Positions 9,683-41,357 of a stretch of DNA of 64,000 bases are shown here, one piece after another; the first letter of the stretch is position 1; each line of letters begins with the position of its first letter. Under the pieces are notes generated by a model that ran no database searches, had not been told where the DNA came from, and saw only the letters and a list, made by a program, of their open reading frames with translations. Both the position numbers and the translations under genes were made by a program. Source of the stretch: a virus. The stretch is taken from positions 64,001 through 128,000 of IMG/VR virus record IMGVR_UViG_3300010885_055964, one strand, 5' to 3'.

Positions 9683-10522
9683 ATGCATAATTTACATATG
9701 CTGATAGATGCAAAAAATATATTATATAGAGCGATCTATGCTGTTAAAGCAGACCGCAGGTATGACGTAAAATACCATTATATCACTGTGCTTCTACGAC
9801 AATTTAGTAATTGGATTAATATATATAGACCTACTTCAGTAAGCATTTTCTGGGATGCTCCAAGAAAGACAGTATGGCGTAGATCGATATTGACTTCATA
9901 TAAAGACAGATCAACGAACCACTATATTGGTGATATATCAGAAGAATTGAGAACCACCACGGAAACTGCAAAGGAGCTGTTCGAAGCTATTAATGTTAGA
10001 CAATTCGAAAGGGATAATATGGAGGCGGATGATTTGATATATGCTACTACATCTATCTTACATCCTGCCCAGAGCATAATCGTTTCTTCAGATAGTGATA
10101 TGGTCCAGATACCTTTTACTTTTAATTCATGCAAATTATATGATCCGGGAAAAAAGCGAGAGGTAGTGATGCCGAGTGTCAATCCTGTGATGCAGAAGGC
10201 TTTGGTAGGAGACAAGTCGGATTGTATAGACGGTTACAGGGGAATAGGAGAGAAGAAGAGCCAAATATTGTTAGCTGATCATCATACATTAAATGAATAT
10301 TTAGATACCAATGGGACCAGTAAATTTAATCGAAATTTGCTTCTTATCGATCTATCATTATGTCCCAAATTAATGCATAATAAAATATATTGCTTAAGAA
10401 AATTAGCTTCGAAGACGAATTTCGACCAAAAGTTGGTCAATGAATTAATAATAAAACATAAGATAAATGGATTATTACAGGAATACCATGATATAGTATT
10501 ACCTTTTAGAGTATTGACATGA
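9683..10522 (+). CDS. 5'-3' exonuclease / RNase H (FEN, T4 RNase H-like)
   Basis: LIDAKNILYR, EADDLI, SSDSDMVQ, H3TH LVGDKSDCIDGYRGIGEKK. Confidence 0.92.
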   Translation: MHNLHMLIDAKNILYRAIYAVKADRRYDVKYHYITVLLRQFSNWINIYRPTSVSIFWDAPRKTVWRRSILTSYKDRSTNHYIGDISEELRTTTETAKELFEAINVRQFERDNMEADDLIYATTSILHPAQSIIVSSDSDMVQIPFTFNSCKLYDPGKKREVVMPSVNPVMQKALVGDKSDCIDGYRGIGEKKSQILLADHHTLNEYLDTNGTSKFNRNLLLIDLSLCPKLMHNKIYCLRKLASKTNFDQKLVNELIIKHKINGLLQEYHDIVLPFRVLT

Positions 10523-11295
10523 GAAAGTTTATAATACTAGCCCAACCAAGAACTGGCTCTACATTGATGACCAGCTTGATACAAAAAAGTGCACCCAAAG
10601 GAATAAGGTGTATCAATGAACCGATTAATCCTGTTGGGCACAAGCATCACATGAAGGGGCCATCTCCTCAATTAATACCACAAGAAATATTGTGTCACGA
10701 CATTACCAGAGCTTTAGACATATGCTTCGAACCGATATTTGAACATGTAGAAAATGATGTAAAACATGTATCATGGATAAAACATAGAAGAGATGGCCAT
10801 ATAGCCGCAGGTTTTAAGATAATGGCTCATCAAATTGAAGCACTACCACATGAACGTAAGTTTTGGGAATACTTACATAGGCACGATGTGAAGACTATCA
10901 TAATAACTAGAAATAATATATTAATGCAATGGATATCAGATTTGATAGTAAAGCAGACAAGGCAATGTGTCGTATGGAAGGGCCCTGTCATTAGAGCAAA
11001 GGTAGAGGTGCCATTAGCTGATATTGAATATAACCTTGATGAAATAATGCGCCAGAATAAGTATTTGTTGGATAAATCAGCTAGCTTAGATAGGCGTATA
11101 TTATGTTATGAGGATTTTAAAGATAATCATTTAGTGGTTGAAGAATCGTTACCATGGTTGTTGGGTATTAAATATGCTGTCAGTGCTCAGTGCAAAAAAC
11201 AAAATTCGGATGCATTATGCGCGAGAGTAACTAATTACGAACAATTGCGTTCTAGGATAATAGAATTAGGGTTAGAACAGTACTTAACAGATTGA
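10519..11295 (+). CDS. sulfotransferase (Stf0-like)
   Basis: 5'-PSB loop FIILAQPRTGSTL, GFKIM, 3'-PB-like RNNILMQWIS, YEDF. Confidence 0.8.
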   Translation: MRKFIILAQPRTGSTLMTSLIQKSAPKGIRCINEPINPVGHKHHMKGPSPQLIPQEILCHDITRALDICFEPIFEHVENDVKHVSWIKHRRDGHIAAGFKIMAHQIEALPHERKFWEYLHRHDVKTIIITRNNILMQWISDLIVKQTRQCVVWKGPVIRAKVEVPLADIEYNLDEIMRQNKYLLDKSASLDRRILCYEDFKDNHLVVEESLPWLLGIKYAVSAQCKKQNSDALCARVTNYEQLRSRIIELGLEQYLTD

Positions 11296-12328: not shown

Positions 12329-13132
12329 ATGTCTATAGATAACTGGGTAAATCCGATATATTTGCAAGATCGGGTAGTGGAAGATATCAAAGAATCAATA
12401 CTAGCTAAGCCTGTTGTTAAATATGCTGTGTTAGATAATTTCTTCATAGAAGATAAGATAGATCTATTAATAAATAAGCATCAGTCTTTGGCTTTTAGCG
12501 AAGCAGCAGACAGAGTCACCACCAGCGGTGTAATATTGCCGTATGATGGGTCAGTGAAATTCGCTGACAAGAATGATGTAGGTGCTGATTTGTTTTTTGA
12601 TCCAGAATGGCATAGATATTGTGCTTATATTACTGGCACCGAATTATCTGATCCTGCTGGTACCGAAGTTAAACTACGATATCATCGAGGCATGGCTGAT
12701 GGATTTTGGATCCATACCGATTCGACCATAAGGGATTTAGTAATAATAGCATATTTTAATAAGGGATGGACCGCTGCCGATGGAGGATTATTACAATTAT
12801 GGAGGGTGGATGAGACACATGACATTAATGCATATAAAGTAAATGCACCTAGTGGTCGTATGGATTTTCTAAGAACTAATAGCAGAATAAGCACAGTTAC
12901 CCCTGGAGGTGGTTTTCCTGATAAAAGACCACATGATTTGGTTCTGATAGACCAAGTAGTGCCCACATATAATCGAGTTTTTATATGTAACCTCAAGGCA
13001 GAACCTGCTTATCATAGCGTAACACCGAGCAATGGAAGAGAACGCTTGGGCTTTGTGCAGTGGTTATATGATTTGAGGAATGGAAAGAGAAGAGAAGAAC
13101 ATATCCCAGATTATAAGAATAATCATAAGTAG
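12329..13132 (+). CDS. 2OG-Fe(II) oxygenase (prolyl-hydroxylase-like)
   Basis: HxD in FWIHTD, YFNKGW...DGGLLQLW, distal His and Arg in AYHSVTPSNGRERL. Confidence 0.88.
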   Translation: MSIDNWVNPIYLQDRVVEDIKESILAKPVVKYAVLDNFFIEDKIDLLINKHQSLAFSEAADRVTTSGVILPYDGSVKFADKNDVGADLFFDPEWHRYCAYITGTELSDPAGTEVKLRYHRGMADGFWIHTDSTIRDLVIIAYFNKGWTAADGGLLQLWRVDETHDINAYKVNAPSGRMDFLRTNSRISTVTPGGGFPDKRPHDLVLIDQVVPTYNRVFICNLKAEPAYHSVTPSNGRERLGFVQWLYDLRNGKRREEHIPDYKNNHK

Positions 13133-13725: not shown

Positions 13726-14009
13726 TGTGTTGTGGTAAGTCGAATAGTTCTAACAAGACTATAAGAACACAGAAAATACAGAAGCAGCGAGTCGTTAAGC
13801 CTAGCAAGCAGGCTTCTGCACGAGAAATATCAAGAGCTAAAGCCGCTACGAGTAATACTATAAAGACGTCATCTATCCCGGCACAAAGACAAAGGATGAC
13901 TAGAACTGATCGATGTAGTGAATGTAATCATCCTGTGGTTATGGTAAATATCGCAGGCAGAGAAAGAGAGCAGTGTTCTAATCCAGGATGTAGAAAAATA
14001 AAAAGATGA
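13725..14009 (+). CDS. basic protein with MCCG N-terminus and C-terminal Zn ribbon
   Basis: MCCGKS...CSECNHP...CSNPGC. Confidence 0.7.
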   Translation: MCCGKSNSSNKTIRTQKIQKQRVVKPSKQASAREISRAKAATSNTIKTSSIPAQRQRMTRTDRCSECNHPVVMVNIAGREREQCSNPGCRKIKR

Positions 14010-14452
14010 TAGAAATATCTATAATACTATTGAGTATAATACTATTATCTTTGGCTGTTGAAGCAGTCACCGAAATAATAACATCGTCAGAGATAGCCAA
14101 ACCTGTTCATGCTATGATATATCGATTGGCTTTTACTAATCCCCCTGTAGACACCATGGCTACTAGAATATGGTCATGGGCATATAAGTTAATAACTTGC
14201 GGTTATTGTACGAGTGTTTGGGTATCTCTATTGGTATGTCTATTGCTAAGCCACACTATCATGCACGAATACATTAATATTGTAATATTAGTTTTTGTGA
14301 TACATAGACTGTCTAACTGGATTCATGTTATTTATGAATTAGTTAGAAAGGGTAGAGTAAATACTCTTGATATAGCATTAAGCGTGGAGGAGAAATCAGA
14401 TGGAGGCATTAGAGAAAGCATTACAGAGGGAGGGCCAGAAGCTGGGTCCTGA
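14006..14452 (+). CDS. DUF1360-like membrane protein
   Basis: TM helices around LITCGYCTSVWV. Confidence 0.65.
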   Translation: MIEISIILLSIILLSLAVEAVTEIITSSEIAKPVHAMIYRLAFTNPPVDTMATRIWSWAYKLITCGYCTSVWVSLLVCLLLSHTIMHEYINIVILVFVIHRLSNWIHVIYELVRKGRVNTLDIALSVEEKSDGGIRESITEGGPEAGS

Positions 14453-14909
14453 TATATTTAATCAGGTCGAAGTTAAAACATTAGCAGATATACAAAGAAT
14501 ATTAACTGAATTTGATCCAGCAAAGAATAAGCCCCATAACGATATTCCAATATCTACTATACTCAACGAGGTAGAGGGTGGCAAGAATGTGGCATATAAT
14601 GTATCGGCTTCTACTAAATCAAAAAGTAAAAGAGACATGTTGGTAGAAGGAATGGCATTGATACAAAGAAGGCTAGAAACGTCAGAAGAAATAGCTAATG
14701 CTACTGAAGAGATTGAGATAAATGGTAGGTATGTCAAGCCAGCTATATTGCGTAGCAACACACAAGGACATGCATGGGTAGATCCATTGATTAAGCAATG
14801 GACCGGCGGTAGAAGAGATGGAACATTAATCGTTTGGGACTTAGATGATGGCTATCAATACAGGTACGAGATCTTCACCCACAAGCTCACCCGGATTAAC
14901 AAGCAATGA
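14400..14909 (+). CDS. hypothetical protein
   Basis: 169-aa ORF, GGAG SD. Confidence 0.65.
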   Translation: MEALEKALQREGQKLGPDIFNQVEVKTLADIQRILTEFDPAKNKPHNDIPISTILNEVEGGKNVAYNVSASTKSKSKRDMLVEGMALIQRRLETSEEIANATEEIEINGRYVKPAILRSNTQGHAWVDPLIKQWTGGRRDGTLIVWDLDDGYQYRYEIFTHKLTRINKQ

Positions 14910-15219
14910 TAAGACGCAACTGCCGCCATTAGCCTATCATAGACCAAGGTCACTATACAGTCCTGTATATGGTGATTTAGTGGTGTGGTCTAAGTGGTTT
15001 ACCACCTGGTACGGTGTAGTAATAAACTATGACGCCAAAAGCAGTAAGATGGAAGTCATATTTGAGGGATTGCCCATACTATTGTTCACTATGAACGAAC
15101 AAGCACAGTCTGAGAACATTTTTACTCTGGATTATTTGGAGCTTAAGAATGCGAAGAACGGCAAGTACGCTATCTTACAACGAGATCCCACGACCAGAGA
15201 GCCCATCTGGTATATCTAG
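14845..15219 (+). CDS. hypothetical protein, possible SH3-like barrel (start uncertain)
   Basis: GDLVVW..WYGVVINYD..MEVIF; the N-terminal extension overlaps the upstream gene. Confidence 0.55.
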   Translation: MMAINTGTRSSPTSSPGLTSNDKTQLPPLAYHRPRSLYSPVYGDLVVWSKWFTTWYGVVINYDAKSSKMEVIFEGLPILLFTMNEQAQSENIFTLDYLELKNAKNGKYAILQRDPTTREPIWYI

Positions 15220-15799
15220 GAGCACTCTGCCAAAAGTACTACCATACACCATATTAGAACCACTAGCCGTTGATGGACCATTAAAGAATATATTTTGTTA
15301 TATTATAAAGTATTATGGTGAAGAAGGATTATCTGTCCTTATTTATAGGCAAAAATCAAAAGATCAAGTGGTGACCATATTTGGTGACTGGCACGGAAAT
15401 AGCATTGACATTACACAAGGAGAAAGTTCAGACACTAAGCTGTGTTCATCCTTCATACAATCAGACTTGGTAAATGTGTTAGACATGATGCGTGTTATAA
15501 ATATAGACCAGGCACAATACTTTTTTGGTGTTGATCAGCATGGATTAGTGCTGTGCGACGTACAGATATCGATTAATAAGATGGTTGGCCCTGGCATGGT
15601 AAAGGATGTATTTGGTAAGATATTGAGAACACAGGATGTGATTAAGACAGAGATATTAGATGACAGGGCCATGGAAGCTATTATCAAAGGTAACGGATCT
15701 TATGAAGGAGATTTAATAATCAAACCTTCAAGATTTCGATTAAATCATAAAATGGAAGATCAGTCTTATCAACCATTGTACGCTAAGGTAATCAGATAA
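15149..15799 (+). CDS. RNA/DNA-ligase-like nucleotidyltransferase fold (start uncertain, possibly 15227)
   Basis: Ordered motifs IKYYG (I), LVLCDV (IIIa), YEGDLIIKP (IV), LYAKVIR (V). Confidence 0.5.
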   Translation: MRRTASTLSYNEIPRPESPSGISRSTLPKVLPYTILEPLAVDGPLKNIFCYIIKYYGEEGLSVLIYRQKSKDQVVTIFGDWHGNSIDITQGESSDTKLCSSFIQSDLVNVLDMMRVINIDQAQYFFGVDQHGLVLCDVQISINKMVGPGMVKDVFGKILRTQDVIKTEILDDRAMEAIIKGNGSYEGDLIIKPSRFRLNHKMEDQSYQPLYAKVIR

Positions 15800-17790
15800 T
15801 GCCTTATTATATAAATCCTAATCCATATATAGTGCCTCTAGTAGGGGCTGATGGGTTAGTAATAAGAATAAGACCACATTCTAAGATAGAATTACCTGCT
15901 TATTTTGACCGATATGTCAGTCGCGGATTAATAAGGGCAGTAGGTTCGGGAGAATTGAATATAGAAGCTAAGATACAACCAAAGTTGGCTGAGCTGAAGA
16001 GAATAGCAAGAACTGGTACTAATAAACCCATCGTCGACGCTGGACAGAATAAACATACTGAGATATTGGGGATAGACAAGTCAAAGCTCAAAGATCGACG
16101 CACACTGAGAAGCCAGAAGAATACAGTAAAACAGAGTAAGCCAAATAAAACCAGAAAGCCTACTGAGCACCAGAAGCGTACACCTGAGATAATCGATCGT
16201 TCTACATCTGATATAGAAAAAATAGTCGGTATAGCTGTCAATAAGAAAGCCCATATATCGATGTCTTCATATTTAAATGGAGAACGAGTTCCATTGAGTA
16301 ATAATATCGGAGTAGGAATACTATCTTATCAACGGTATAAGAGCCTTAAGAGATTAGTAACATCTATACGTCGGCACACTAATATATATAAAACAACCGT
16401 GTTTATTAGTGATGATGGTAGCACAGACCCAGAATTGGTCGAATACCTAAACGAATTAGATGCGTCCGGTGATTTTACGATTATTAGAAGCACACACAGG
16501 CTGGGTGTGGCTGGTAATAGTAACCGACTGCTCAGGTGTTTAAGCAGATTTAAATATGGCATATTGTTAAATGATGATGTAGAAGTTTTAGATGAAGGAT
16601 GGGAATACTTTTATACGCGCGCTTTAGAACAAACAGGAATGCATCATTTGATGCTCAGGCAGAATGGCATATATGGTGCTAAACAAGGAGTGCCGGTTAA
16701 CGCTAGCGGGATCATACTGAATAAGGTCGACGATAAACCACAAGGAGCTGTGTTAGTCTTCACCCACAAGATGCTGAACAGTTGTGGTTATTTCAATGAG
16801 CAATATGGTTTATATGGAATGGAACATGTCGATTGGTCCGCGAAAGCACACGAGTTCGGCTTACAGCAAAGAGGCTTTTATGATGTGATGGGCTCAGACA
16901 GATACATGATGCTGCATGATGAAAGATCAGCGGTGAGTGATAGAGAAGCGTCACTTGCCAAGGCAAAAGCCATCTTTAAGGACAGAGAGCCTAGACAGAA
17001 GGTGCCTCCTAGTGCAGTATCAGCCGTAGATGAAATAACATATATTATACCTTTTAGAGACCATGAGAGAACAGGTGCTATCAAAACAGTATTAAATAAT
17101 ATTAGGGCACAGCGGTTTCCTGTGATACATATAATCATATCTGAACAGGATGTGGTTTCCCGTATAGACGTCCAAGCGTATGAACCGGTATCTTATGTAA
17201 TGGCCAGCAAAGACGAACAGCTTTTTAATAAGTCATATGCTTTTAACCAAGCAGTGGTTGTAGCCACCAGTGATAAATTGATATTACATGATGCTGACAT
17301 GATGACATTCGGAGATTATGCTAGGAAAATATGGCAAATATTAGAACATGCTGACGCATGTCATATTGGCTCTAGAGTATTGTATACAGATAAACAATCA
17401 TGTGAACAAATCAATATCACTGGAGAAATGGGAGAGTCGACGATATGTGAACGAGTGGTCGGTTATTATGAGGGTGGCTCGTTAGCATGCACAAAGAGAG
17501 CATATTGGCGTTGTGGTGCTTTTAATGAAGATTTCTATGGATATGGATGCGAAGACTGTGACTTTTACAAACGCTTGTCTGAGTCATCCAATTGGTGTGG
17601 AGATCGTGACTATGATCTGATTCACTTATGGCACTCTCGAGTAGAAGGATGGAATGACCATCACGATATTAATAAAGAGCTAGAATCATATCTGAAAAAA
17701 TTATCAGTAAGCCAAAGAATAAACAAACAAATAACCCAGCTTAAACAAAATGGGTATGGACAGACTTTAAGAGAGATGGGCATATCGTGA
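15799..17790 (+). CDS. tandem glycosyltransferase (GT2 + GT2/GT7-like) with extra N-terminal domain
   Basis: ILSYQR..FISDDGS..LLNDDV..GMEHVD; IIPFRD..FNKSYAFN..HDAD..FNEDFYGYGCEDCDF. Confidence 0.9.
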   Translation: MPYYINPNPYIVPLVGADGLVIRIRPHSKIELPAYFDRYVSRGLIRAVGSGELNIEAKIQPKLAELKRIARTGTNKPIVDAGQNKHTEILGIDKSKLKDRRTLRSQKNTVKQSKPNKTRKPTEHQKRTPEIIDRSTSDIEKIVGIAVNKKAHISMSSYLNGERVPLSNNIGVGILSYQRYKSLKRLVTSIRRHTNIYKTTVFISDDGSTDPELVEYLNELDASGDFTIIRSTHRLGVAGNSNRLLRCLSRFKYGILLNDDVEVLDEGWEYFYTRALEQTGMHHLMLRQNGIYGAKQGVPVNASGIILNKVDDKPQGAVLVFTHKMLNSCGYFNEQYGLYGMEHVDWSAKAHEFGLQQRGFYDVMGSDRYMMLHDERSAVSDREASLAKAKAIFKDREPRQKVPPSAVSAVDEITYIIPFRDHERTGAIKTVLNNIRAQRFPVIHIIISEQDVVSRIDVQAYEPVSYVMASKDEQLFNKSYAFNQAVVVATSDKLILHDADMMTFGDYARKIWQILEHADACHIGSRVLYTDKQSCEQINITGEMGESTICERVVGYYEGGSLACTKRAYWRCGAFNEDFYGYGCEDCDFYKRLSESSNWCGDRDYDLIHLWHSRVEGWNDHHDINKELESYLKKLSVSQRINKQITQLKQNGYGQTLREMGIS

Positions 17791-18746
17791 ATATTTTATT
17801 ATGCCACCGACCGGATGGTGCTTTTGGATACATTTCTGATGGGTGGCAAAACGCTCTACACGATAAGGGCCATCAAGTAAGAAGATGGGATGGGCGAATA
17901 GAATCATGGCGTGAGTTTAAACCAAAAGTATATATTGGCTGTTCAGGCCATAAACAGCCTATACCAAAAGAACGAAATGATTGCAAAATAGCATTGCACG
18001 TCAACCCACATGGTCCTGTAGAAATAGAAGGAATAAACGAATCACTTGATAACGTACAATGGGTAGTAGAGCAGAAGCCCGATGTTGTGTTTGGCTACGG
18101 TCATGATGATGATGGCATAATGTGGAGTGGGTGGTCCGCTCAATATGGTATCGATTGGGTACCCATGCCTTGTGCAGCAGATCGAGTATTATTTAAAAAA
18201 GTTAAATCATATGATGATCGTGATTTGGATCTAGTTTATTTAGGTGGTAGGTGGAAATATAAAGCTAAAACTATAGATGCATATTTAATACCTGTGATTG
18301 AAGAACTAAAACTACAAAATCGGAAAATGGCTGTGAGGGGTTGGGGAGAATGGCCAGATAAAATATGCGGTGGCACACTAGCCAGCGATCAAGTTAATTC
18401 TTTTTTGAACAGTGGTAAAATAGCTCCTTGTATATCTGAGCAGCACACCCACCAATACGGGATCGATATACCAGAGAGAGCTTTTAAGGTGGCTCTTTGT
18501 GGTGCGTTAGTGATACACGATTCTGTATTACACCTGAGGCGTATGATACCATCAGCATTAGTAGCTGCAAATCCCCAACATTTTAGAGATTTATGTTTGC
18601 ATTATATAAATAATGACGCAGAGAGAGTCGAAATAGCTCGTAAGCAACATGATGAGGTGCTGGCTAATCATACATATCATCACCGTATGGCTGGTTTGTT
18701 AAAGTTGCTTGGGTTTGAGGACCAGGCTAAGCAAATGTTGGTGTAA
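17787..18746 (+). CDS. GT-B glycosyltransferase (CgeB/DUF3880-like)
   Basis: DLVYLGG, RAFKVALCGALVIHD, VLANHTYHHRM. Confidence 0.8.
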   Translation: MNILLCHRPDGAFGYISDGWQNALHDKGHQVRRWDGRIESWREFKPKVYIGCSGHKQPIPKERNDCKIALHVNPHGPVEIEGINESLDNVQWVVEQKPDVVFGYGHDDDGIMWSGWSAQYGIDWVPMPCAADRVLFKKVKSYDDRDLDLVYLGGRWKYKAKTIDAYLIPVIEELKLQNRKMAVRGWGEWPDKICGGTLASDQVNSFLNSGKIAPCISEQHTHQYGIDIPERAFKVALCGALVIHDSVLHLRRMIPSALVAANPQHFRDLCLHYINNDAERVEIARKQHDEVLANHTYHHRMAGLLKLLGFEDQAKQMLV

Positions 18747-18747
18747 T

Positions 18748-19392
18748 TTGGCATTAGCTACTGACAAGTATCTGTTTTTACATATTCCAAAGACCGGGGG
18801 TGTATGGTTATCACAAATACTGAGAAAGATATCGGCACCAATAGAAGTCGGGCATCAACATTCTCATTTTCCGCAACTGTGTCAAATATATGAGCCAGAT
18901 TGGTTTATAAGTAAATTTATATTCACAATGGTCAGGCACCCTATTACTTGGTATCAGTCTAGGTGGGCTTTTAGAGTAAAGTACGGCTGGCATTCGAGTC
19001 ACCCATTAGACTACAATTGTGCCAGTAATGACTTTAATCAGTTTGTAATCAATGCTCTGGAATATAAACCTGATGGATGGTACACATACGAGATCGATCA
19101 ATTTATGTGTGGTGTACCAGGCGGAATCAGGCATGTGATTAAACTAGAAGATGGTCTAAATGGAGTGATTGAAGCCATCAATCAAATAGGCCTGCAATAT
19201 GATATAAATGTTATAAAATCTATACCTAGGGTTAACGATTCAGATATGGGTGGGCGAACATCAAAATATTGGGCTAAATACCGACCGGATGTGTATAAAC
19301 GAGTGATCAACGTAGAGAGACGAGTCATCGACCGATATTATTCTGGGCATAAAATCAATCCCAGCGACCATGTAGGTCCACGACCTTGGTAA
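18748..19392 (+). CDS. sulfotransferase family 2 protein
   Basis: LFLHIPKTGG, FTMVRHPITWYQSRW, IKLED; TTG start assumed at 18748. Confidence 0.85.
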   Translation: MALATDKYLFLHIPKTGGVWLSQILRKISAPIEVGHQHSHFPQLCQIYEPDWFISKFIFTMVRHPITWYQSRWAFRVKYGWHSSHPLDYNCASNDFNQFVINALEYKPDGWYTYEIDQFMCGVPGGIRHVIKLEDGLNGVIEAINQIGLQYDINVIKSIPRVNDSDMGGRTSKYWAKYRPDVYKRVINVERRVIDRYYSGHKINPSDHVGPRPW

Positions 19393-20104
19393 CATTACGT
19401 TCTTTCCACTGAATATATTCTAGATCACTATCATTATTGAGATGGGTGACCAATAAGTTACTGTTAATACCTATGAAAGCCTTGCGTCGGTGAGCTGATA
19501 GACAAAGATTACCATCATCAGCCCCATATAATTGTTGGTCATAAAAGAGGCCGACTGACTCGAAAAACTGGGTATCAATGATTAATAGAGGGCCTGCTGT
19601 ATGTCTGTTGTAGTAAAGCCCAGGATAAAAGTCGGGTGAAGCTTCCAGTATGCGAGCATCGTGCATGATTAATTGATGCTCAAGCTGATATTGCCATGTT
19701 TGATGAGGGAGATTACATATCGCTGGTGCTATTAATCCGACCTTAGTGCATCTTTTGACGTAATAGAATGATCGTTGAAGTTCTATAAGCCATTCTGCTG
19801 GTACTACTATATCCGAGTCTATAGATATGAAGTGCTGTAGAGTATTGTGCCGCATAATAGTATTATACCATTTATTCACTGCGGCTCCTTTTCCGATATT
19901 GTAATCATTAGCATATATAGTGATATTTGGGTGTTTACTATATTGATATAGGTATGAATCAATATGACCTGCAGAATTGTCGATTATAGATAGATGGTAT
20001 GGGCACTCTGTATTATTGAGAATCGAATCGACGCAATTAGTGAAGTCATTGGGCCTATGATATGCCACCATTATGATTTGTGTAGGTTGGATATCTAAGA
20101 GCAT
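19355..20104 (-). CDS. GT2 glycosyltransferase
   Basis: MVAYHR..IIDNS..NIGKGAAVN..ISIDSDI..YGADDG. Confidence 0.85.
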   Translation of the reverse strand: MLLDIQPTQIIMVAYHRPNDFTNCVDSILNNTECPYHLSIIDNSAGHIDSYLYQYSKHPNITIYANDYNIGKGAAVNKWYNTIMRHNTLQHFISIDSDIVVPAEWLIELQRSFYYVKRCTKVGLIAPAICNLPHQTWQYQLEHQLIMHDARILEASPDFYPGLYYNRHTAGPLLIIDTQFFESVGLFYDQQLYGADDGNLCLSAHRRKAFIGINSNLLVTHLNNDSDLEYIQWKERNVTKVVDLHGRWD

Positions 20105-20134
20105 AATCTATTTATCGAGTGATGTATGTATACA

Positions 20135-20165
20135 ACAAAAGGGTGCTTTTGTCGCACCCTTTTGT
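20135..20165. terminator. bidirectional-type intrinsic terminator
   Basis: Perfect 12-bp inverted repeat ACAAAAGGGTGC/GCACCCTTTTGT with a 7-nt loop. Confidence 0.85.
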
Positions 20166-20190
20166 ATGTTAAGAACGGTATTAGTAAATA

Positions 20191-20418
20191 TCAGCGAGAG
20201 ACGAATGTGATCAGTTTAAGCTTGCTTAACTGTTGGAGCTGAGCCTCGTCAAGACGTACAGTCTCGAGAGACAACTGAGCACCAGGAGTAACGAAGGTCT
20301 GATTGGTTACCTCTGGTTTAAGATCGGAATTAACATTAACGCTAGCATATCCGATAGAATTGACTAAGATCGGAATGCTTTGATTAGAGATGTTGGTGAT
20401 TGTCGTGATATTGGCCAT
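20191..20418 (-). CDS. small protein, paralogue of 41094..41357
   Basis: ATG 20418 with GGAGG SD; ITNISNQSIPI...VTPGAQLSL...QLQQLSKLKLI. Confidence 0.75.
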   Translation of the reverse strand: MANITTITNISNQSIPILVNSIGYASVNVNSDLKPEVTNQTFVTPGAQLSLETVRLDEAQLQQLSKLKLITFVSR

Positions 20419-20461
20419 AATTACCTCCAAGGTTAAAGCAGGTTTACTTTAAATTTGATCA

Positions 20462-21328
20462 ATGCCCGATTTCTCTATTATTAGCTGCATATCACAGCCA
20501 GACGTTTTTGACAGGTGCCTTTTAAGATCTATATATGCTGCAAGAAAAGAATATGATATAGAAATAATTCCTATTTTTAACTATGAAAACAGATATTCAG
20601 CCAGTAACGCTTTGAATATAGGGGCGGACGTTGCCAGATCGGACAAGTTGATTTTCGTGCATCAAGATGTTAGATTATTATCCGATTGGTTTGATATATT
20701 ATATGACAACATTAACAAGATGCCTAAAGATTGGGCTGTACTAGGATCAGCAGGAATAGATCTGAGATATAATAGAGCTGACATAGGTAAGTGGGGAGGG
20801 GCGGCTAACCAATCCACTGTTGCAGTGGGATCAGTATGGTTCAGTGATGAAACAGTAGATCAGCCTCCTGAATGGGGTGGGACTAAGGAATTATCTCTAA
20901 CGCATTGTGTTGATGAATGTTTGATGGTAGTGAATAAGAGATCGGGTCTAAGGTTCGATACGATGTTCAACGGCTTTCATTTTTATGCAGTAGATTTATG
21001 CCTGCAGGCAAGATCAGCAGCATACCCAGTATATTGCGCACATCTGCCAATAGTACATTACGGGAAATATTCTGCGAGCATATCAGACGACAACAGGTAT
21101 TGGCCACAGTTACGTTATTTGCATCATAAATGGAAGATGAGATTCCCAGAATTGTTAGGTACACATATGCATTGGGCCGAAAATGAATTAACGAGCTATA
21201 TTCCTATGTCTATAGTTTCTGATGATCTACAAGAAGTACGAATAAAGGCCATGGGTTTAAGTCAGGTAGTGCTGGCTACCGATAAACAACACGGCATACT
21301 TAATGTAAAAGACAGGAGCAGACCATGA
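20462..21328 (+). CDS. GT2-like glycosyltransferase (Glyco_tranf_2_5 type)
   Basis: SASNALNIG..LIFVHQDV..VDECLMVV..GFHFYAVDLCLQA. Confidence 0.85.
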   Translation: MPDFSIISCISQPDVFDRCLLRSIYAARKEYDIEIIPIFNYENRYSASNALNIGADVARSDKLIFVHQDVRLLSDWFDILYDNINKMPKDWAVLGSAGIDLRYNRADIGKWGGAANQSTVAVGSVWFSDETVDQPPEWGGTKELSLTHCVDECLMVVNKRSGLRFDTMFNGFHFYAVDLCLQARSAAYPVYCAHLPIVHYGKYSASISDDNRYWPQLRYLHHKWKMRFPELLGTHMHWAENELTSYIPMSIVSDDLQEVRIKAMGLSQVVLATDKQHGILNVKDRSRP

Positions 21329-22230
21329 TACGAGCTATTGTATTGATGCATCCACAGTCAGCAGATTTGTTACCTAAGGACGTTTTTAAATCTAAGCTGG
21401 TTAAATCTATAGGAATATCATGTGGTGCTTCTAAAGTACCTGGTGCTGACTTATCAGAGGCGGCCGATTTCTTTCCGACTTATGCGTCATGGAATTCCGC
21501 TTTGTTTGAGACATCGATAATATTAACTGTATGGGAGCACGCAGACAATTTAATATCAAACGATCATGTGGCTTTTCTACATACTGATATACGCCCACAT
21601 TTCAAGGCGTCAGAGATATGGAGCAAAATCCATAAACAATTAGATGCAGAACCTGACTCTTCTTTGGCTTTAACAGCTCCGTTAGGATATCAAGGACTTT
21701 GGAATGATTGGTTGGTACGCGAGTCTGCTAAGCTAATACCAAAGAATGACCCATATAAGATACATTGTTTTGATAATGGGATCTTTGTGTGGGATATAAT
21801 CAAGAAATATGATCCAGATATTTATGAGTGGGCGTTTGATACACAACCGAACATGATATATAGCCACCAGTTCGCGTGTTCGAGGTCCACATTGAATTAT
21901 TTGGGCAATAAGTTGACTAGCGTGGTTAGTAAACTCAGGCTAACTGATGTGGGATTTTGGACTCCTCATGTGTTTGAAAGGCTGATAGCCCTATATCTAG
22001 CATATAAGGGGCGTCCAATATTAACAACAGCGTTTTGGCATTACCAATCATCTGGTGTGTATGGGCCAGGACACCATAATTTATATGGCCCCAGACCAAT
22101 TAGATATTATAAGGTCAAGTCTAATAGGACAGTTATAGGAGAGTCGCATGCATCAAAGTCAGAAAAGCTGCTTGAACAGACTCATACCAATCATCATCTA
22201 GATCCTCTATCGTTGATATCCCGATATTGA
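21325..22230 (+). CDS. putative glycosyltransferase (DUF4422-like)
   Basis: FETSIILTVWEH..DHVAFLH and HVFERLIALYL resemble DUF4422 motifs; sits in the GT cluster. Confidence 0.5.
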   Translation: MIRAIVLMHPQSADLLPKDVFKSKLVKSIGISCGASKVPGADLSEAADFFPTYASWNSALFETSIILTVWEHADNLISNDHVAFLHTDIRPHFKASEIWSKIHKQLDAEPDSSLALTAPLGYQGLWNDWLVRESAKLIPKNDPYKIHCFDNGIFVWDIIKKYDPDIYEWAFDTQPNMIYSHQFACSRSTLNYLGNKLTSVVSKLRLTDVGFWTPHVFERLIALYLAYKGRPILTTAFWHYQSSGVYGPGHHNLYGPRPIRYYKVKSNRTVIGESHASKSEKLLEQTHTNHHLDPLSLISRY

Positions 22231-24551: not shown

Positions 24552-25613
24552 TTAATAATCAGGGCTGACTATAGAAACGAATTCTTCAAACTTGTAATCT
24601 GGGAATGCTACAACTGGTTCGAGTACGACCTGCACATCAGCGAGTAATTCCTGTATTTCACATATCAGTCGATCAGCGTCACGTATCCCATCAGACATAT
24701 ACTGAAGAGTAACGCTATCCAACTGTGTCTGGATGAGTTTAAACCTGGTAATAGCATATTTCTCATAAAAAGTACGACTACCAAATATAGGCCATTTGCG
24801 TTCACCGTTAGGCATTATAAACATATTACGCACTCGACCATAAATATAAGTGATTGTTTGAAGCGAACGTCCACATGTGCAAGATCCTAGCTGTATATGA
24901 TCACCGTGATTATATCTGGTTATATATGGATTGGTTAATGTGGTGATAATCAGGCCACCATCTTCCGACACTTCGACTAATTGATTTTCCATCACGTGAT
25001 AGTTGCTGGGTACATCTGGGCATTGGATGGCAATTGTGCCGCATTCTTCGCTAGAATACATGGTTCCACCACGTTCTCCTGTGCCCTTCCAGTCTAATAG
25101 ATTGGTTACATTAGACAGATCCAAAGCATCGCGGATAGAAGGGGCACAAGCCAAATAATGAGGGTTTATTTGTTTGATCCATGCCTGTAAATCAGATACT
25201 TTTTCACAGCCTATTTTATGACTCGCACCCTGAATAGGAGCTAATCGTCTTGGTAGCCCCCAGTTAGGGCTTGATTTACGCACCTCGCCCGGCTTGACGA
25301 AAGCTAGCACTTTACTATAGTCCCAATTCCTCCACTGATACTCTCGAATATTGGTAGCTAGCAACCATATCTGATCATCGATAGTTTTTTGAACTGTGAT
25401 AGGCTCGCCAGTTGAACCGCTAGTACGAACGCAAAATAAACCTGGCCGCATTGGTGTGTGATTAAGCTGACTACGGGAGATGATTGGTCGATCTTTAATT
25501 AAATCGAAATTCGGCGTGTGATCCCACTGGCTGGCATTAAGCTTATCTATTAATGATAGAGTTTCAGAGGTGATAAACCGCATTTGATCATGGCTAATCA
25601 TCGAAAATCCCAC
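24552..25613 (-). CDS. phenylacetate-CoA ligase/CapK-like adenylate-forming enzyme
   Basis: ANL motifs RTSGSTGEP, YSSEECG, ITTLTNPYITRYNHGD, YGRVRN. Confidence 0.85.
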   Translation of the reverse strand: MGFSMISHDQMRFITSETLSLIDKLNASQWDHTPNFDLIKDRPIISRSQLNHTPMRPGLFCVRTSGSTGEPITVQKTIDDQIWLLATNIREYQWRNWDYSKVLAFVKPGEVRKSSPNWGLPRRLAPIQGASHKIGCEKVSDLQAWIKQINPHYLACAPSIRDALDLSNVTNLLDWKGTGERGGTMYSSEECGTIAIQCPDVPSNYHVMENQLVEVSEDGGLIITTLTNPYITRYNHGDHIQLGSCTCGRSLQTITYIYGRVRNMFIMPNGERKWPIFGSRTFYEKYAITRFKLIQTQLDSVTLQYMSDGIRDADRLICEIQELLADVQVVLEPVVAFPDYKFEEFVSIVSPDY

Positions 25614-26083
25614 ATAAAGAATGAATAATCTGCTAGAATCGTTGAAGATTGAGGTTTGATATTAAAGTCAGAAGTTTGAGGGAAATAAGCGGCTATTCGC
25701 ATGAGAGGTAGTTTGTAATTGAATGAACGTACTATTAGTCTCTTGCAATAACGAGAGGACATATTTATTATCCCATCGGCTAACTCTTGGGTGAAGTTGA
25801 GTACGCCATCCCCTATGATATTATCATAATGTGTGCTATTGGATAACCAATCTGCTATAATCATCGTATCTGGAATATGCAAAGGGTCGACATCCATCTG
25901 CCTGTGAGATAAGGGGACTAAATTATGGGTACAGCCAAGTAGCAAAGTCGTACCTTGAATCAGACTGTTTTGATAAAAAAGTGCATCATCACTACTAGGA
26001 GAATATGGGGGTAATAGACTGTTCCAGTAATATTTATCGGGCAAGGACATAACTGGTAGATGATAGAAGAAAGATGGCGGCAC
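25598..26083 (-). CDS. class I SAM methyltransferase-like protein (compact; start uncertain)
   Basis: LLLGCT..MDVDP..IADW..YDNIIGDGVLNF. Confidence 0.55.
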   Translation of the reverse strand: MPPSFFYHLPVMSLPDKYYWNSLLPPYSPSSDDALFYQNSLIQGTTLLLGCTHNLVPLSHRQMDVDPLHIPDTMIIADWLSNSTHYDNIIGDGVLNFTQELADGIINMSSRYCKRLIVRSFNYKLPLMRIAAYFPQTSDFNIKPQSSTILADYSFFMWDFR

Positions 26084-34040: not shown

Positions 34041-34059
34041 TAAATAACTAGGAACTGTT

Positions 34060-35187
34060 ATGCCACGCAAGAATAAAATAATAATACGTAATGGTACGGG
34101 TGCGCCCTCGGCTTCGGACTTCGTGACGGGCGAGCCTGCGTTTGATTCAAGCGCGGGCTCGTTGTATATCAAAAACGCTGCCGGCACGATGGCCCAGATT
34201 ACCGGTGGTGGCGGCGGCAGCGTCCCAGACCCCTACGAGCTGGGTACCTATCCGCTGATCACGATCTCCGCGCAGCCGTCGGCGACAAGCGTGACGGCTG
34301 GCAACAGCGCGACGTTCACCGTCACGGCCGCGGCCACCCTGCCGACGGCGGCGATCTCCTACCAGTGGCAAGTCTCCACCGACGGCGGCTCGACGTGGAG
34401 CAACGTCAGCGGTGCCGCGTCGTCGTCGCTCACGCTCACCAATCTCCAGATCAGCAGCAGCGGGTATCGCTATCGGTGCAGGTTAACGGCGAACCTGTCG
34501 CAGATTTTTTCGTCGTCAGCGACGTTGACGGTAAATATTGGGTTAAATCAAGCTGTCTTGTTGACGAGCGGAACAAGCTACACGGTGCCAAATGGTGCGA
34601 CCAGCATGAAGGCGTGGGCGGTGGGTGGTGGGCAGGGATACGCTGCTAACTTTGGCGGATACGGAAACGCCGCAGGCGTGGCTTACAAGACATGGAGCGT
34701 AAGCGGAGGAGTCACGGTCACGTATTCAGTTGGATCGGGAGGCACGTCAGGCGTGTACGGCGGCGCAGGAACTGATAGCACTGTGACATTCTCCGGCACT
34801 ACAATTACGGGCGGCGGCGGCAAAACACAAAGCACAGGCGGCACGTTTTCAGGTGGAGACGGAGGCAGCGCGGGCGGTCTTTCGCCGGGTAATTTTTCTT
34901 TCCAAGGCACCTATGCTGCTGCTGGTGGCGCAGTTGGCGGAAATGGAACAAGAGCAAGTTGCGGGCGATATCCGGCAACAGACATCAGTGGATTGCTGGC
35001 TGCTGTAGCATTGGCTGGTGGAAAAACAACCGAGGATTGCGGAGCAACTGCTGCATTTGGAAGCGGCGCAGCGGCTGTAAAGTACGGCACCAGTTTGGCT
35101 GCTGGGTATGGAGGTGGTGGCGCATATATCACTGGCGCGACAACTCGGAACGGTGGAGGCGGCGCGGTTGTGCTGTATTTCACATGA
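34060..35187 (+). CDS. fibre protein with Ig-like and glycine-rich domains
   Basis: N-term IIIRN..GEPAFDS..LYIKN; ITISAQP..YQWQ..YRYRC Ig domain; Gly-rich C-term. Confidence 0.8.
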   Translation: MPRKNKIIIRNGTGAPSASDFVTGEPAFDSSAGSLYIKNAAGTMAQITGGGGGSVPDPYELGTYPLITISAQPSATSVTAGNSATFTVTAAATLPTAAISYQWQVSTDGGSTWSNVSGAASSSLTLTNLQISSSGYRYRCRLTANLSQIFSSSATLTVNIGLNQAVLLTSGTSYTVPNGATSMKAWAVGGGQGYAANFGGYGNAAGVAYKTWSVSGGVTVTYSVGSGGTSGVYGGAGTDSTVTFSGTTITGGGGKTQSTGGTFSGGDGGSAGGLSPGNFSFQGTYAAAGGAVGGNGTRASCGRYPATDISGLLAAVALAGGKTTEDCGATAAFGSGAAAVKYGTSLAAGYGGGGAYITGATTRNGGGGAVVLYFT

Positions 35188-35666
35188 GCAATGTGCTGAG
35201 ATCGCCAACAACTAACAACGCGATTCTGCTTACACCCAGATCCGGCTCGCACTCACTTGCGGCTGCTGCCATGCAAGTGTTCTGGCCCGGTGTGGAAGTT
35301 GTCGATAATCACCCGGCCTCGTACTTTCCTAACGACGAATGGTGGAGCGATGCGACAGACAATTGCGCAATCGTCGTCCGAAATCCCGTAGAACGCTTCA
35401 GAAGCATGTGCGCACATGTGCCGGGACGACCGCTAGAAGAGCATCTTGCCAATCCGATTTACGGCCCGCTGCCGCAAGGCAACTTCGTCCGCTACTTCCG
35501 TTTTGAGGATCAACTGAACGACGCCGCCGAATGGCTAGGCTTGCCAACGCCGCTGCCGCACGAGGACGCGACCGACCCCGCGGCGAAGCCCGCGTTGACG
35601 CCGGATCAGGAGGCTCTCGTGCGTCAAATCTTCGCCGCGGACATTGCCTTGTGGGAGTCGATCTGA
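35184..35666 (+). CDS. sulfotransferase family 2-like protein (compact)
   Basis: LLTPRSGSHSL, IVVRNPVERFRS, FRFED, LPHED; ATG 35184 overlaps the upstream stop. Confidence 0.75.
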   Translation: MSNVLRSPTTNNAILLTPRSGSHSLAAAAMQVFWPGVEVVDNHPASYFPNDEWWSDATDNCAIVVRNPVERFRSMCAHVPGRPLEEHLANPIYGPLPQGNFVRYFRFEDQLNDAAEWLGLPTPLPHEDATDPAAKPALTPDQEALVRQIFAADIALWESI

Positions 35667-41093: not shown

Positions 41094-41357
41094 ATGGTAA
41101 AAGCTCAAAAGTCACATGTCATCAGAGTCTATAACAATAGTAAGCAGCTAATCCAGCTTCATATGAGGCCACCAGGAGGTGATTTTTTCACCAATGAATC
41201 ACAGGTCAGAATATTACCGGGTATGGAAGTATTGTTACCAAAGACACATTGCAGACAAGATCAATTAGATAATCTGTCAAAAAAGGGTTTCATTAAGATC
41301 ATCTATGACAGTCAAGCTGTAGCTGATAGACAAGAAGCAGCAATAAACGGAAATTGA
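41094..41357 (+). CDS. small probable virion protein
   Basis: AAGGAG SD; sits between the gp15-like and sheath genes. Confidence 0.75.
   Translation: MVKAQKSHVIRVYNNSKQLIQLHMRPPGGDFFTNESQVRILPGMEVLLPKTHCRQDQLDNLSKKGFIKIIYDSQAVADRQEAAINGN

Follow-up and report, generated by a model that had tools for sequence, protein, structure and literature searches.

A soluble glycosyltransferase cluster with an embedded sulfotransferase in an uncultured T4-like jumbo phage, tentatively linked to glycosylation of virion proteins

The window analyzed here is a stretch of 64,000 nucleotides (positions 64,001 to 128,000 of IMG/VR record IMGVR_UViG_3300010885_055964) from the genome of an uncultured giant phage, a T4-like jumbo myophage of ~360 kb; that it is a phage is confirmed by genes for tail sheath, baseplate, gp32, helicase and primase. 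The record searched comprised 178 kb, complete relatives of 320-408 kb were used elsewhere, and conservation was counted in two sets, i.e., 62 loci anchored on the glycosyltransferase (GT) genes and 45 relatives anchored on gp32. Directly after gp32 and the genes for a 5'-3' exonuclease and for endonuclease VII, positions 15799-22230 carry six GT domains in five genes (Table 1), as an earlier note on this DNA had observed; Pfam confirmed four of these genes and an Atlas structure search the fifth. Loss of catalytic residues, which the earlier note had raised, was not found: each GT family keeps its catalytic residues, DxD-type ones included, without variation, and the PAPS residues are equally invariant (11-38 relatives per family). 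None of the enzymes in the cluster contains a transmembrane segment and no flippase or transporter gene was recognized within it, observations that favor cytoplasmic action without export machinery. The core GT genes are preceded by two conserved genes. The 124-aa protein has homologues at 61/62 GT-anchored and 42/45 gp32-anchored loci and gave no informative match in Pfam, PHROG or PDB; the 216-aa protein has homologues at 50/62 loci, with a sub-threshold Pfam match to Autoind_synth and no match in a PDB search.

Table 1. Coordinates of the GT cluster, its flanking genes and other genes of the window considered here
Feature	Position	Strand	Remarks
Second sulfotransferase-like gene	10519..11295	+	PRTGST motif; nearest relatives only
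2OG oxygenase	12329		Pfam; prolyl-hydroxylase type
Conserved 124-aa protein	14845..15219	+	Overlaps next gene; always just 5' of GT core
Conserved 216-aa protein	15149..15799	+	Stop overlaps start of 663-aa GT
Dual GT-A core enzyme, 663 aa	15799..17790	+	Pfam, AF2, Foldseek, VIA
CgeB-like GT-B (Glyco_trans_1_2)	17787..18746	+	GTG start overlaps preceding stop codon
PAPS-type carbohydrate-sulfotransferase-like protein, 214 aa	18748..19392	+	TTG start 1 base after GT-B stop
Optional GT2	19355..20104	-	Pfam GT2 36.2 bits; 14/62 loci
75-aa small protein (s79)	20191..20418	-	Minus-strand conservation in 26 loci
Glyco_tranf_2_5-type GT-A	20462..21328	+	Pfam 38.8 bits; 31/62 loci
DUF4422-like protein	21325..22230	+	ATG overlaps preceding stop codon; 30/62 loci
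Candidate methyltransferase	25598-26083		
160-aa mini sulfotransferase-like gene	35184..35666	+	Overlaps end of glycine-rich fibre gene
87-aa small protein	41094..41357	+	Between tail-terminator-like and sheath genes; s79 paralogue

The 663-aa protein consists of a small beta domain (residues 1-50), a disordered polycationic tether (52-145) and two GT-A domains, placed by VIA at ~165-400 (domain 1, GT2/GT27-like) and ~410-630 (domain 2, GT2/GT7-like); its Pfam matches (GT2 with 55.7 bits, Glyco_tranf_2_2 and Glyco_transf_7C) all exceeded the cut-offs. Invariant positions in the family include D205, D259-D260, YGMEHVDWS, D451, D498/D500, E585-D586 and H609/H612/R614. The tether carries a net charge of +7 to +25 in 32/32 relatives and would be equally suited to membrane lipids or nucleic acid, a point against virion proteins as acceptor. 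The GT-B protein (Glyco_trans_1_2 with 62.5 bits; invariant E218, H220, E230, R231 and K234) was found at 51/62 GT-anchored and 38/45 gp32-anchored loci.

These two genes alone form the conserved core, whose syntenic position is unchanged in 38 of the 45 gp32-anchored loci despite identities of only 35-50%. In two relatives (L041 and L059) they are fused into a single protein of 983 aa, and five relatives carry inteins exactly inside the catalytic motif (GYG|CED). The core family comprises at least 533 clusters, all metagenomic (contigs up to 370 kb), and the clade that carries it is very divergent, with members in marine (Tara) and further public metagenome sets; a search of 185,579 species genomes gave only three full-length matches, all on MAG contigs of discordant taxa. 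Judging from these sequences, the core appears to be confined to phages, with no convincing cellular homologue. The conserved site, the metagenomic-only family, the inteins in the motif and the fusion favor a phage-intrinsic role. One relative with a complete genome of 341 kb has no trace of the core; the core is therefore dispensable, a point against its acting on virions.

The AF2 model of the 663-aa protein (pLDDT 85.6) found its best Foldseek matches in K4CP (E 4e-18), LARGE1, CHSY3-CHPF and PmHS2. E. coli K4 K4CP (PDB 2Z86/2Z87), Pasteurella PmHS2 (8VH7) and human LARGE1 (7ZVJ) represent the best whole-protein folds (E 4e-18 to 1e-13 over 530-660 columns), with 393-407 residues spanning both domains aligned by VIA, and like the phage protein these soluble enzymes contain two GT-A domains per chain with a DxD in each. 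K4CP is also the sole significant PDB sequence match (E 6e-5), in the GT7C-like stretch only. On the other hand, identities to these polymerases are 10-17%, the domains are oriented differently (rmsd ~22 A for K4CP), and the beta domain and cationic tether are additions of the phage protein. In architecture, the dual GT resembles these bifunctional polymerases, which add two sugars in alternation. GT-A domain 1 fits protein-O-GalNAc transferases (Z 18.9) and teichoic-acid GTs (Z 18.4) equally well, which also weighs against a specific assignment to virion proteins.

The sulfotransferase that the earlier note had placed among the GTs was corroborated, with its real start at TTG 18748. While it had no match to any Pfam model, including the sulfotransferase models, the PAPS motifs H12-x-P14-K15-x-G17-G18 and R63-H64-P65...S71 are invariant in 18 relatives, a profile search ranked heparan sulfate 6-O-sulfotransferase first (E 0.007), and the protein matched phrog_3347 (E 1e-4). 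The best 50 Foldseek matches listed for its AF2 model (pLDDT 92) were all sulfotransferases. The fold is shared with heparan sulfate 2-O-, 3-O- and 6-O-sulfotransferases and NodH (Z 10-11 over 173-185 of 214 residues; for the 2-O enzyme, VIA gave Z 11.3 and rmsd 3.5 A over 173 residues), whereas identity to such carbohydrate PAPS sulfotransferases is ~10-15% and the phage protein has only 214 aa. It occurs at 31/62 GT-anchored and 28/45 gp32-anchored loci. The earlier note did not separate this sulfotransferase, which is part of an optional extension, from the conserved core pair.

This extension (the sulfotransferase, two or three more GTs and the 75-aa protein) is present in ~60% of the relatives. 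Invariant residues were found in the optional GT2 (D42 and D96-x-D98), the Glyco_tranf_2_5 enzyme (H67-Q68-D69 and D151-E152) and the DUF4422-like protein (H86-x-D88). The last had no match in a Pfam search, and in the Atlas search, which used Atlas's own model, it matched clusters that are 100% DUF4422 with TM 0.62. Some relatives carry phosphoribosyltransferase-domain and methyltransferase genes inserted into the cluster. By profile comparison (hhalign probability 96.4%, E 1e-9), the 75-aa protein is a paralogue of the universal 87-aa gene beside the tail sheath, which was present in 5/5 complete relatives tested, including one without the GT core. This relationship to a tail-module gene speaks for a virion link, as does the direct continuation of the GT genes into structural and fibre genes that is often seen in relatives. 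Conversely, the N-terminal beta domain of the 663-aa protein matched the tail-module small protein with an hhalign probability of 34%, which does not establish kinship and weighs on the other side.

The earlier note had drawn several distant genes into one pathway. Of its two further sulfotransferases, the 160-aa protein was upheld (Atlas score 0.96 against phage Sulfotransfer_2-like clusters; PRSGSHS and VRNPVERFRS invariant in the family), while the gene at 10519 remained weak, with a weak Stf0 Pfam match, a best PDB profile match to the LPS sulfotransferase NodH (E 0.07, 5'-PSB region only) and occurrence at 6/62 GT-anchored and 8/45 gp32-anchored loci. The 160-aa gene lies in a 55-62% GC island, has at least 211 homologues (57-100% identity among the 120 listed) and follows a fibre-protein motif at fixed spacing in 41/50 viral loci, and this tie to a fibre gene is a further observation in favor of a virion link. 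The 2OG oxygenase was verified by Pfam and occurs at ~10/62 loci; as both it and the 10519 gene are restricted to a small subclade, neither could be retained as a pathway member. Support for the cupin at 63434, 40 kb from the cluster, was weak, PDB matches of the PaaK-like ligase were sub-significant (E 0.17-0.8), and no counterpart of the ligase or methyltransferase genes was found among the 62 related loci. Conservation gives no link between the cluster and the genes for ligase, methyltransferase, oxygenase and cupin, and a single pathway across the whole window is not supported.

Among cultured phages, the nearest homologues of the cluster are mycobacteriophage glycosyltransferases, which provided the only substantial matches to GT-A domain 1 in 50,697 phage records (338 of 346 records), with 22-27% identity over one domain only. 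The mycobacteriophages in question are siphoviruses of 50-70 kb that encode one to three GTs of a single domain each and lack a sulfotransferase. PMC12619734 (citing Freeman et al. 2023) reports glycans on mycobacteriophage virions, at the capsid and tail-tube ends, and this kinship speaks for a virion link. The GTs of Che8-type cluster F phages are soluble and of GT2 type, as in the present cluster; the shared role would be the coating of the phage's own virion proteins.

Top structural neighbours in a viral model library came from Moumouvirus, Megavirus and Catovirus (E 1e-19 to 1e-14), and Mimiviridae and chloroviruses likewise possess large, soluble, multi-domain GTs; this neighbourhood, too, speaks for a virion link. 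Such giant-virus enzymes work in the cytoplasm, independently of the host's ER and export systems, and glycan coats occur on chlorovirus capsids and mimivirus fibrils. However, giant viruses infect eukaryotes and usually encode sugar-nucleotide synthesis enzymes, and we know of no sulfotransferase partner of their GTs. No sugar-nucleotide or PAPS synthesis gene, including APS kinase and SDR epimerase, was found for the phage cluster; its donors should therefore be host-derived, presumably UDP-sugars and PAPS.

As the enzymes are real, phage-encoded and catalytically intact, with a predicted PAPS-type sulfotransferase in the operon, the sulfated glycan suggested in the earlier note is a reasonable product, and the cluster probably makes a sulfated sugar chain on a phage-made target. 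We tentatively regard the cluster as a phage-specific, fully soluble glycan-building module and, with similar reserve, virion proteins as its acceptor. The earlier interpretation is thus partly supported, although sequence does not decide between the virion protein and the infected-cell surface as acceptor.

Remodelling of the host envelope is a somewhat less likely alternative. The soluble enzymes would act at the inner membrane face on host lipid-linked intermediates, building or altering a capsule, O-antigen or exopolysaccharide; the product, sulfated in this subclade, would then leave via the host's own ABC transporter. K4CP and PmHS2 products are capsular polysaccharides exported by ABC transporters, and these capsule polymerases as nearest two-domain folds, together with the DUF4422 fold (in WbbM, an O-antigen polymerase of Klebsiella, the galactofuranosyltransferase domain), hint at a host polysaccharide and weigh against virion proteins. 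Moreover, the sulfotransferases resemble those of polysaccharides and LPS, the enzymes are soluble, as envelope-polysaccharide enzymes typically are (or peripheral), and the tether could anchor the dual GT to anionic membrane lipids. Yet the cluster contains no initiating phosphoglycosyl transferase, flippase, polymerase or transporter gene, and no convincing cellular homologues represent a source of capture. The core keeps one site across a very divergent clade, and a conserved acceptor would be hard to reconcile with varied host glycans. Envelope remodelling was also the interpretation given to jumbo cyanophage GT clusters (Iyer et al. 2021, PMC7824862), which likewise are paralogous GT groups of a T4-like jumbo phage whose genome has 2OG oxygenase and cupin genes at other places. 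Those clusters, however, are described as sporadic and polymorphic between related viruses, and sugar kinases, isomerases and nucleotidyltransferases are among their genes, whereas the present cluster has no such genes and its core keeps one site across the clade.

A sulfated polysaccharide that stays free in the cell or is released, or else a small molecule or lipid that becomes glycosylated, seems improbable as the product; while the polymerase-like architecture, the lack of recognizable acceptor or export genes and the phosphoribosyltransferase-domain and methyltransferase insertions (suited to small-molecule chemistry) would agree with it, the conserved docking domain and tether point to a macromolecule as partner, and we know of no phage precedent. 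Least likely, and to be given very little weight, is hypermodification of DNA, i.e., a possibly sulfated glycan on a modified base that blocks restriction, with the tether binding DNA in a replication-linked role. The strongly basic tether and the position directly 3' of gp32, exonuclease and endonuclease VII genes fit this idea, as do the thymidine of phage YerA41 with its ~1-kDa oligosaccharide-like substituent (PMC9023294) and the GT and sulfotransferase systems that, according to PMC10829341 (citing Iyer et al. 2013), were predicted for phage nucleotide modification. However, neither the 178-kb record nor any of five complete cluster-bearing relatives (320-408 kb) was found to encode a thymidylate-synthase-family hydroxymethylase, strengthening the argument of the earlier note against DNA, and the nearby 2OG oxygenase is of prolyl-hydroxylase type and rare. 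A Tet/JBP search gave no match, with the control genomes of the same search equally silent. The gp32 neighbourhood is weak evidence, as the gp32 to tail-fibre junction simply reflects a T4-like gene order.

Under glycosylation of virion proteins, the three sugar-transfer activities of the core (two GT-A domains and the GT-B) would act as one unit, with the beta domain and cationic tether docking the 663-aa enzyme onto its substrate, and in this subclade the extension (PAPS-dependent sulfotransferase, Glyco_tranf_2_5 and DUF4422-like proteins, optional GT2 and 75-aa protein) would elaborate and O-sulfate the chain. The acceptor would be a phage-encoded macromolecule, most likely surface proteins of the virion (fibres, capsid or tail), and the outcome an anionic glycan coat on the virion; if the host envelope were the target instead, the cluster would likely block superinfection by other phages or alter the cell surface during the long jumbo-phage infection.

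The 663-aa protein encoded by the first gene of the core (the dual GT) combines two GT-A glycosyltransferase (GT) domains in a single chain, and its anatomy was described from an alignment of 32 relatives together with an AF2 model (pLDDT 85.6). Residues 1-50 are predicted to form a small, confidently folded beta domain, followed by a linker (residues 52-145) that is modelled with pLDDT <50 and is not conserved in sequence among the relatives. Every one of the 32 sequences nevertheless has a net positive charge in this linker (+7 to +25, median +12.5), and the catalytic part of the protein is approximately neutral; candidate partners for the cationic linker are a membrane, a nucleic acid or an anionic glycan. 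Invariant residues across the 32 sequences include D205, N258-D259-D260 and YGMEHVDWS in domain 1 as well as E449/D451, H497-D498-A-D500, G-Y-G-x-E585-D586 and H609/H612/R614 in domain 2, and a GT7-like region (PF02709) was identified at residues 557-596 (29.2 bits, Pfam cut-off 23). Judged by the model and these invariant residues, both GT-A domains have intact active-site motifs. Identity of the N-terminal domain with the two small proteins of 75 and 87 aa was also considered, and is not supported by profile comparison (34% hhalign probability to one, none to the other).

Coordinates of the features discussed (window positions unless a relative's locus, L followed by a number, is named)
Feature	Position	Strand	Evidence or remark
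2OG oxygenase, prolyl-hydroxylase type	12329-13132		
DUF1360 protein	14006-14452		3 or 4 predicted membrane segments
124-aa protein (u124)	14845-15219		
216-aa protein (u216)	15149-15799		
Dual GT: GT2 domain and second GT2_2/GT7C-type domain	15799-17790	+	Pfam, above curated cut-offs; GT2 55.7 bits
Cationic linker of dual GT, residues 52-145	15952-16233	+	
CgeB-like GT-B, PF13524 Glyco_trans_1_2	17787-18746	+	Pfam, 62.5 bits (cut-off 25)
Embedded sulfotransferase	18748-19392	+	
GT2	19355-20104	-	Pfam, 36.2 bits (cut-off 23.3); D96-x-D98 invariant
75-aa gene	20191-20418	-	
Glyco_tranf_2_5, PF13712	20462-21328	+	Pfam, 38.8 bits (cut-off 27); H67-Q68-D69 invariant
DUF4422-like GT	21325-22230	+	
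Gene with collagen-like run	31199-31906		
GC-rich island	34000-39300		55-62% GC
Fibre C-terminal domain and mini sulfotransferase	34060-35666; relatives L162-L210		
Mini sulfotransferase-like gene	35184-35666	+	160 aa
87-aa gene	41094-41357	+	
Intein-bearing dual GT orthologues	L020:10001-13009; L056:10001-13027; L039:10001-12961; L053:10001-12454; L048:9974-12484		
Dual GT and GT-B fused	L041, L059 (9980-12931)		983 aa
Phosphoribosyltransferase-domain genes and SAM methyltransferase inserted between GT-B and sulfotransferase	L012:13476-14066; L017:13301-13858; L020:18427-19125		

Whole-chain Foldseek searches with the 663-aa protein were led by bifunctional polymerases, i.e., the E. coli K4 chondroitin polymerase K4CP (E 4e-18, 553 columns), LARGE1, the CHSY3-CHPF chondroitin synthase and Pasteurella heparosan synthase 2 (PmHS2), with 12-17% identity within the structural alignments; beta4Gal-T1 was matched with E 7e-10. 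The sole significant sequence match in the PDB (phmmer) was also K4CP, at residues 548-601 in the GT7C-like stretch (E 6e-5), and as phmmer covered only these residues, full-length sequence homology to a known polymerase (K4CP, PmHS2) was not found. The likeness to K4CP and PmHS2 thus consists of two GT-A domains per chain and the best whole-chain fold, and is known here from sequence and model. Domain 1 alone was alike (Z 17-19, VIA) to polypeptide GalNAc-transferases, the teichoic-acid GTs TarP and TarS, WrtF and RmlT; as it is equally near several families, the fold is silent on acceptor class. In a viral model library, the structures nearest to it were GTs with several domains from Mimiviridae-like giant viruses and from uncultured tailed phages, and mycobacteriophage GTs represented 338 of the 346 matching phage records for domain 1 (22-27% identity).

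The earlier note, which had claimed a phage glycosylation and sulfation pathway, read six GT-type domains in five genes, and these were borne out, by Pfam for four genes and, more tentatively, by an Atlas model resembling DUF4422 clusters for the fifth (21325-22230). For this fifth gene, no DUF4422 (PF14393) sequence match was obtained in Pfam even at E 5 and the family profile had no match in the PDB; Atlas's own model showed TM 0.62 to a 100% DUF4422 cluster, and a feature score of 0.96 was obtained to an Atlas cluster with DUF4422 in 14% of members. The sulfotransferase said to be embedded among the GTs was likewise supported by PAPS motifs, a profile match to a heparan sulfate sulfotransferase and the AF2 fold. 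Comparison with relatives places its start at a TTG codon one base past the GT-B stop codon. Both the 5'-phosphosulfate loop (H12-x-P14-K15-x-G17-G18) and the 3'-phosphate motif (R63-H64-P65-x-x-W68-Y69-Q70-S71) are invariant in 18 sequences. In a profile comparison (E 0.007), they fall on both PAPS-binding loops of heparan sulfate 6-O-sulfotransferase, the latter motif on RDPxxRYxS of that enzyme. Pfam and NCBIfam gave no significant match for this ORF or for the DUF4422-like one, and PHROG 3347, annotated as galactose-3-O-sulfotransferase, was matched with E 1.3e-4. The AF2 model (pLDDT 92) retrieved sulfotransferases in 50 of the best 50 Foldseek matches listed; VIA aligned it to HS 2-O-sulfotransferase (Z 11.3, rmsd 3.5 A, 173 residues), with 3-O-sulfotransferases and cytosolic SULTs at most one Z unit from this top match. 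Loss of catalytic DxD or PAPS residues was not observed, as every nameable catalytic motif was invariant among the 11-38 relatives aligned per family.

The source virus is a T4-like jumbo myophage; the window encodes a contractile tail sheath, baseplate wedge and hub, a DnaB-like helicase, primase, gp32, a 5'-3' exonuclease and endonuclease VII. CheckV rated the 178-kb IMG/VR record 49% complete, which corresponds to a genome of approx. 360 kb. Among 50,697 deposited phage genomes, blastn of the cluster found no DNA-level relative, and the tail sheath was at most approx. 30-44% identical to any sheath. Scans for the T4 late-promoter motif TATAAATA and for sigma-70 promoters and terminators revealed no enrichment.

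The 663-aa protein matched 62 IMG/VR loci (34-51% identity; contigs up to 408 kb) with a nearly fixed gene order that starts with gp32, the exonuclease and a small gene. After a variable stretch come the DUF1360 membrane protein, three proteins without assigned function (169, 124 and 216 aa) and then the dual GT with the GT-B behind it. In approximately half of these loci the GT-B is followed by the extension, i.e., the sulfotransferase and further GTs (the Glyco_tranf_2_5 and DUF4422-like GTs, with the minus-strand GT2 being optional), and a minus-strand 75-aa gene; structural and tail-fibre genes lie 3' of the GT region. Profiles of the two conserved upstream proteins of 124 and 216 aa had no match in the PDB. 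The DUF1360 protein, the sole membrane protein near the cluster, is kept three genes upstream of it in 35 of 45 relatives. As gene 32 and rnh also adjoin tail-fibre genes in T4, the closeness of the cluster to replication genes says little.

To avoid the bias that comes with the GT as anchor, a second scan was anchored on gp32. The dual GT and GT-B were found at the expected place in 38 of the 45 gp32-anchored loci with at least 9 kb downstream, and 28 of the 45 also had the sulfotransferase; in two further loci the cluster was located upstream, and the one whose record was searched has the dual GT too. No copy of the dual GT was found in a complete 341-kb relative with terminal repeats (locus L119, genome G006). 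Presence at 38 of 45 loci and absence from one complete relative indicate that the core is near-universal yet dispensable. The relative without the dual GT keeps the neighbourhood of gp32, exonuclease, u124 and u216, and represents a natural knockout useful for comparative profiling. At 90% identity the dual GT family divides into more than 533 clusters, every one of them from metagenomes, and a search of 185,579 prokaryote species (one genome each) yielded just three full-length copies, all on MAG contigs (L152, L153 and L154, labelled Nitrospirales, Melioribacteraceae and Promethearchaeota, respectively). As these contigs were binned into unrelated phyla, they are probably mis-binned jumbo-phage DNA.

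Five relatives carry an intein in the dual GT, placed precisely between GYG and CED of the domain 2 catalytic motif (GYG|CEDCDF). These inteins have classic Cys...His-Asn/Cys junctions and sizes of approx. 145-360 residues, and their database relatives match Pfam Intein_splicing and LAGLIDADG; we know of no report of inteins in glycosyltransferases. In two relatives a single three-domain protein unites the dual GT with the CgeB-like GT-B. The intein site and the fusion also point to one unit that belongs to the phage and is under strong constraint.

No hydrophobic segment was found in any cluster enzyme, and the cluster has no recognisable gene for an initiating transferase, a flippase, a polymerase or a transporter. 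APS kinase and SDR-type sugar epimerases/dehydratases are absent from the 178-kb record, and APS kinase is also absent from the complete relatives. Given this lack of supply genes for PAPS and nucleotide sugars, the cluster enzymes would use host PAPS and host nucleotide sugars as donors.

As acceptor we tentatively rank virion proteins first, at somewhat less than an even chance. Indirectly, a phage-encoded acceptor is favoured by the stable, clade-wide core together with the lack of cellular homologues, by the run-on of the GT genes into structural genes and by the predicted docking-domain-plus-tether design; by analogy, the kinship of domain 1 to mycobacteriophage GTs and the giant-virus structural neighbours may point the same way. 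As summarised in PMC12619734, phages of that mycobacteriophage group bear glycans at their capsid and tail-tube ends. A candidate Maf/DUF115 protein glycosyltransferase in the upstream glyco cluster was rejected as sub-threshold (13.6 bits).

An acceptor in the host envelope, ranked second, is somewhat less likely. It agrees with the polysaccharide pathways that provide the best architectural analogues of the core enzyme and with the resemblance of the sulfotransferases to polysaccharide or LPS enzymes, and the cationic tether could serve as a membrane anchor. In those pathways export is by ABC transporter and the enzymes are likewise soluble, and the DUF4422 fold also comes from such pathways. 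GT clusters of jumbo cyanophages have been read as tools that diversify outer polysaccharides; those clusters are sporadic and polymorphic (Iyer et al., PMC7824862), unlike the core described here, and because of this difference virion proteins were put before the host envelope.

DNA as the target of the cluster is very improbable, as the dCMP/dUMP hydroxymethylase family (PF00303), i.e., the thymidylate-synthase family from whose absence the earlier note had argued against DNA hypermodification, is indeed absent from the 178-kb record and from five cluster-carrying relatives (98-100% complete), in a search that found it in 10 of 14 control genomes; moreover, the nearby 2OG oxygenase, a prolyl-hydroxylase-type enzyme, is limited to approx. 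10 of 62 loci, and Tet/JBP gave no match, a weak point as the control genomes were silent too. To our knowledge, the thymidylate-synthase family is the source of hydroxymethyl-pyrimidines in every well-studied glycosylated phage DNA.

Besides the arguments for virion proteins as the acceptor, two side results tie the phage's glyco and sulfo genes to the tail module. The first is a paralogy between the 75-aa extension gene and the 87-aa gene (hhalign 96.4%, E 1e-9); the latter sits between a tail-terminator-like gene and the sheath gene and is present in every complete relative tested, including the relative without the GT core. The second concerns the mini sulfotransferase-like gene, which belongs to a family with invariant PAPS-type motifs. 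A close-pattern scan found no relatives of this gene, and an alignment query yielded 50 viral loci (contigs of 30-238 kb); in 41 of these, the glycine-rich fibre protein encoded upstream has a 23-residue motif that precedes the mini sulfotransferase at a constant distance of 530-595 bases, the same spacing as in the window. This constancy indicates that the fibre end and the mini sulfotransferase travel together as a cassette, and the pair recurs across very different genome sizes and GC contents. The 160-aa protein could be a fibre modifier or a fibre chaperone built on a sulfotransferase fold. The surrounding GC-rich island, with glycine-rich and Ig-like fibre genes in a genome of approx. 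40% GC, and the closer identity of the mini sulfotransferase relatives (58-82%, as compared to 35-50% for the rest of the phage) suggest a mobile fibre cassette that was recently acquired. Directly upstream of the fibre genes, one gene (31199-31906) encodes a Cys- and Pro-rich region that ends in a short collagen-like run (GPVGPVGPPGPPG); the window also encodes a prolyl-hydroxylase-type 2OG oxygenase, and the product of this gene is a possible target of hydroxylation.

Some further genes had also been attached to the pathway. The PaaK-like and methyltransferase-like genes have no counterpart in the 62 related loci; PaaK-family structures were matched only at E 0.17-0.8, and neither ORF gave anything significant in Pfam or NCBIfam. 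The gene at 10519 can still be read, weakly, as a sulfotransferase; like the DUF6065 and 2OG pair, it occurs in the nearest relatives only. Such genes may act on the same product in this phage, but they are not tied to it by conservation.

It is known that GTs of phages can modify DNA or host surfaces and, in mycobacteriophages, the virion. Phage GT clusters are of a known kind, and we infer the function of this one. New are the active site marked by inteins, the repeated association with a PAPS sulfotransferase and a tethered, polymerase-like dual GT that, with its GT-B partner, forms a near-core, phage-only unit. That this widespread phage clade makes a sulfated GAG-like polymer, in which a tethered K4CP-like alternating polymerase, the GT-B and the sulfotransferase would coat the virion anionically, we consider unlikely; if true, this would be, as far as we know and could find, the first sulfated glycoconjugate from a virus of prokaryotes. 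No study of a sulfotransferase encoded by a phage came up in our literature searches; nucleotide-modification systems with GTs and sulfotransferases were predicted computationally in phages (Iyer et al. 2013, as cited in PMC10829341).

Overall, the core represents a polymerase-like enzyme system of three domains that is confined to phages. Most sampled members of a large clade of environmental phages (320-408 kb) have retained it, its conservation is strong enough for inteins to occupy its active site, and in many members it is joined by a PAPS sulfotransferase. The cluster enzymes might also be used to produce defined sulfated glycans in bacteria. Should the product coat the virion, giant phages would own an autonomous glycosylation machinery, like giant eukaryotic viruses, and sulfation would be a further chemical feature of phage particles that affects adsorption, aggregation and recognition by defence systems.
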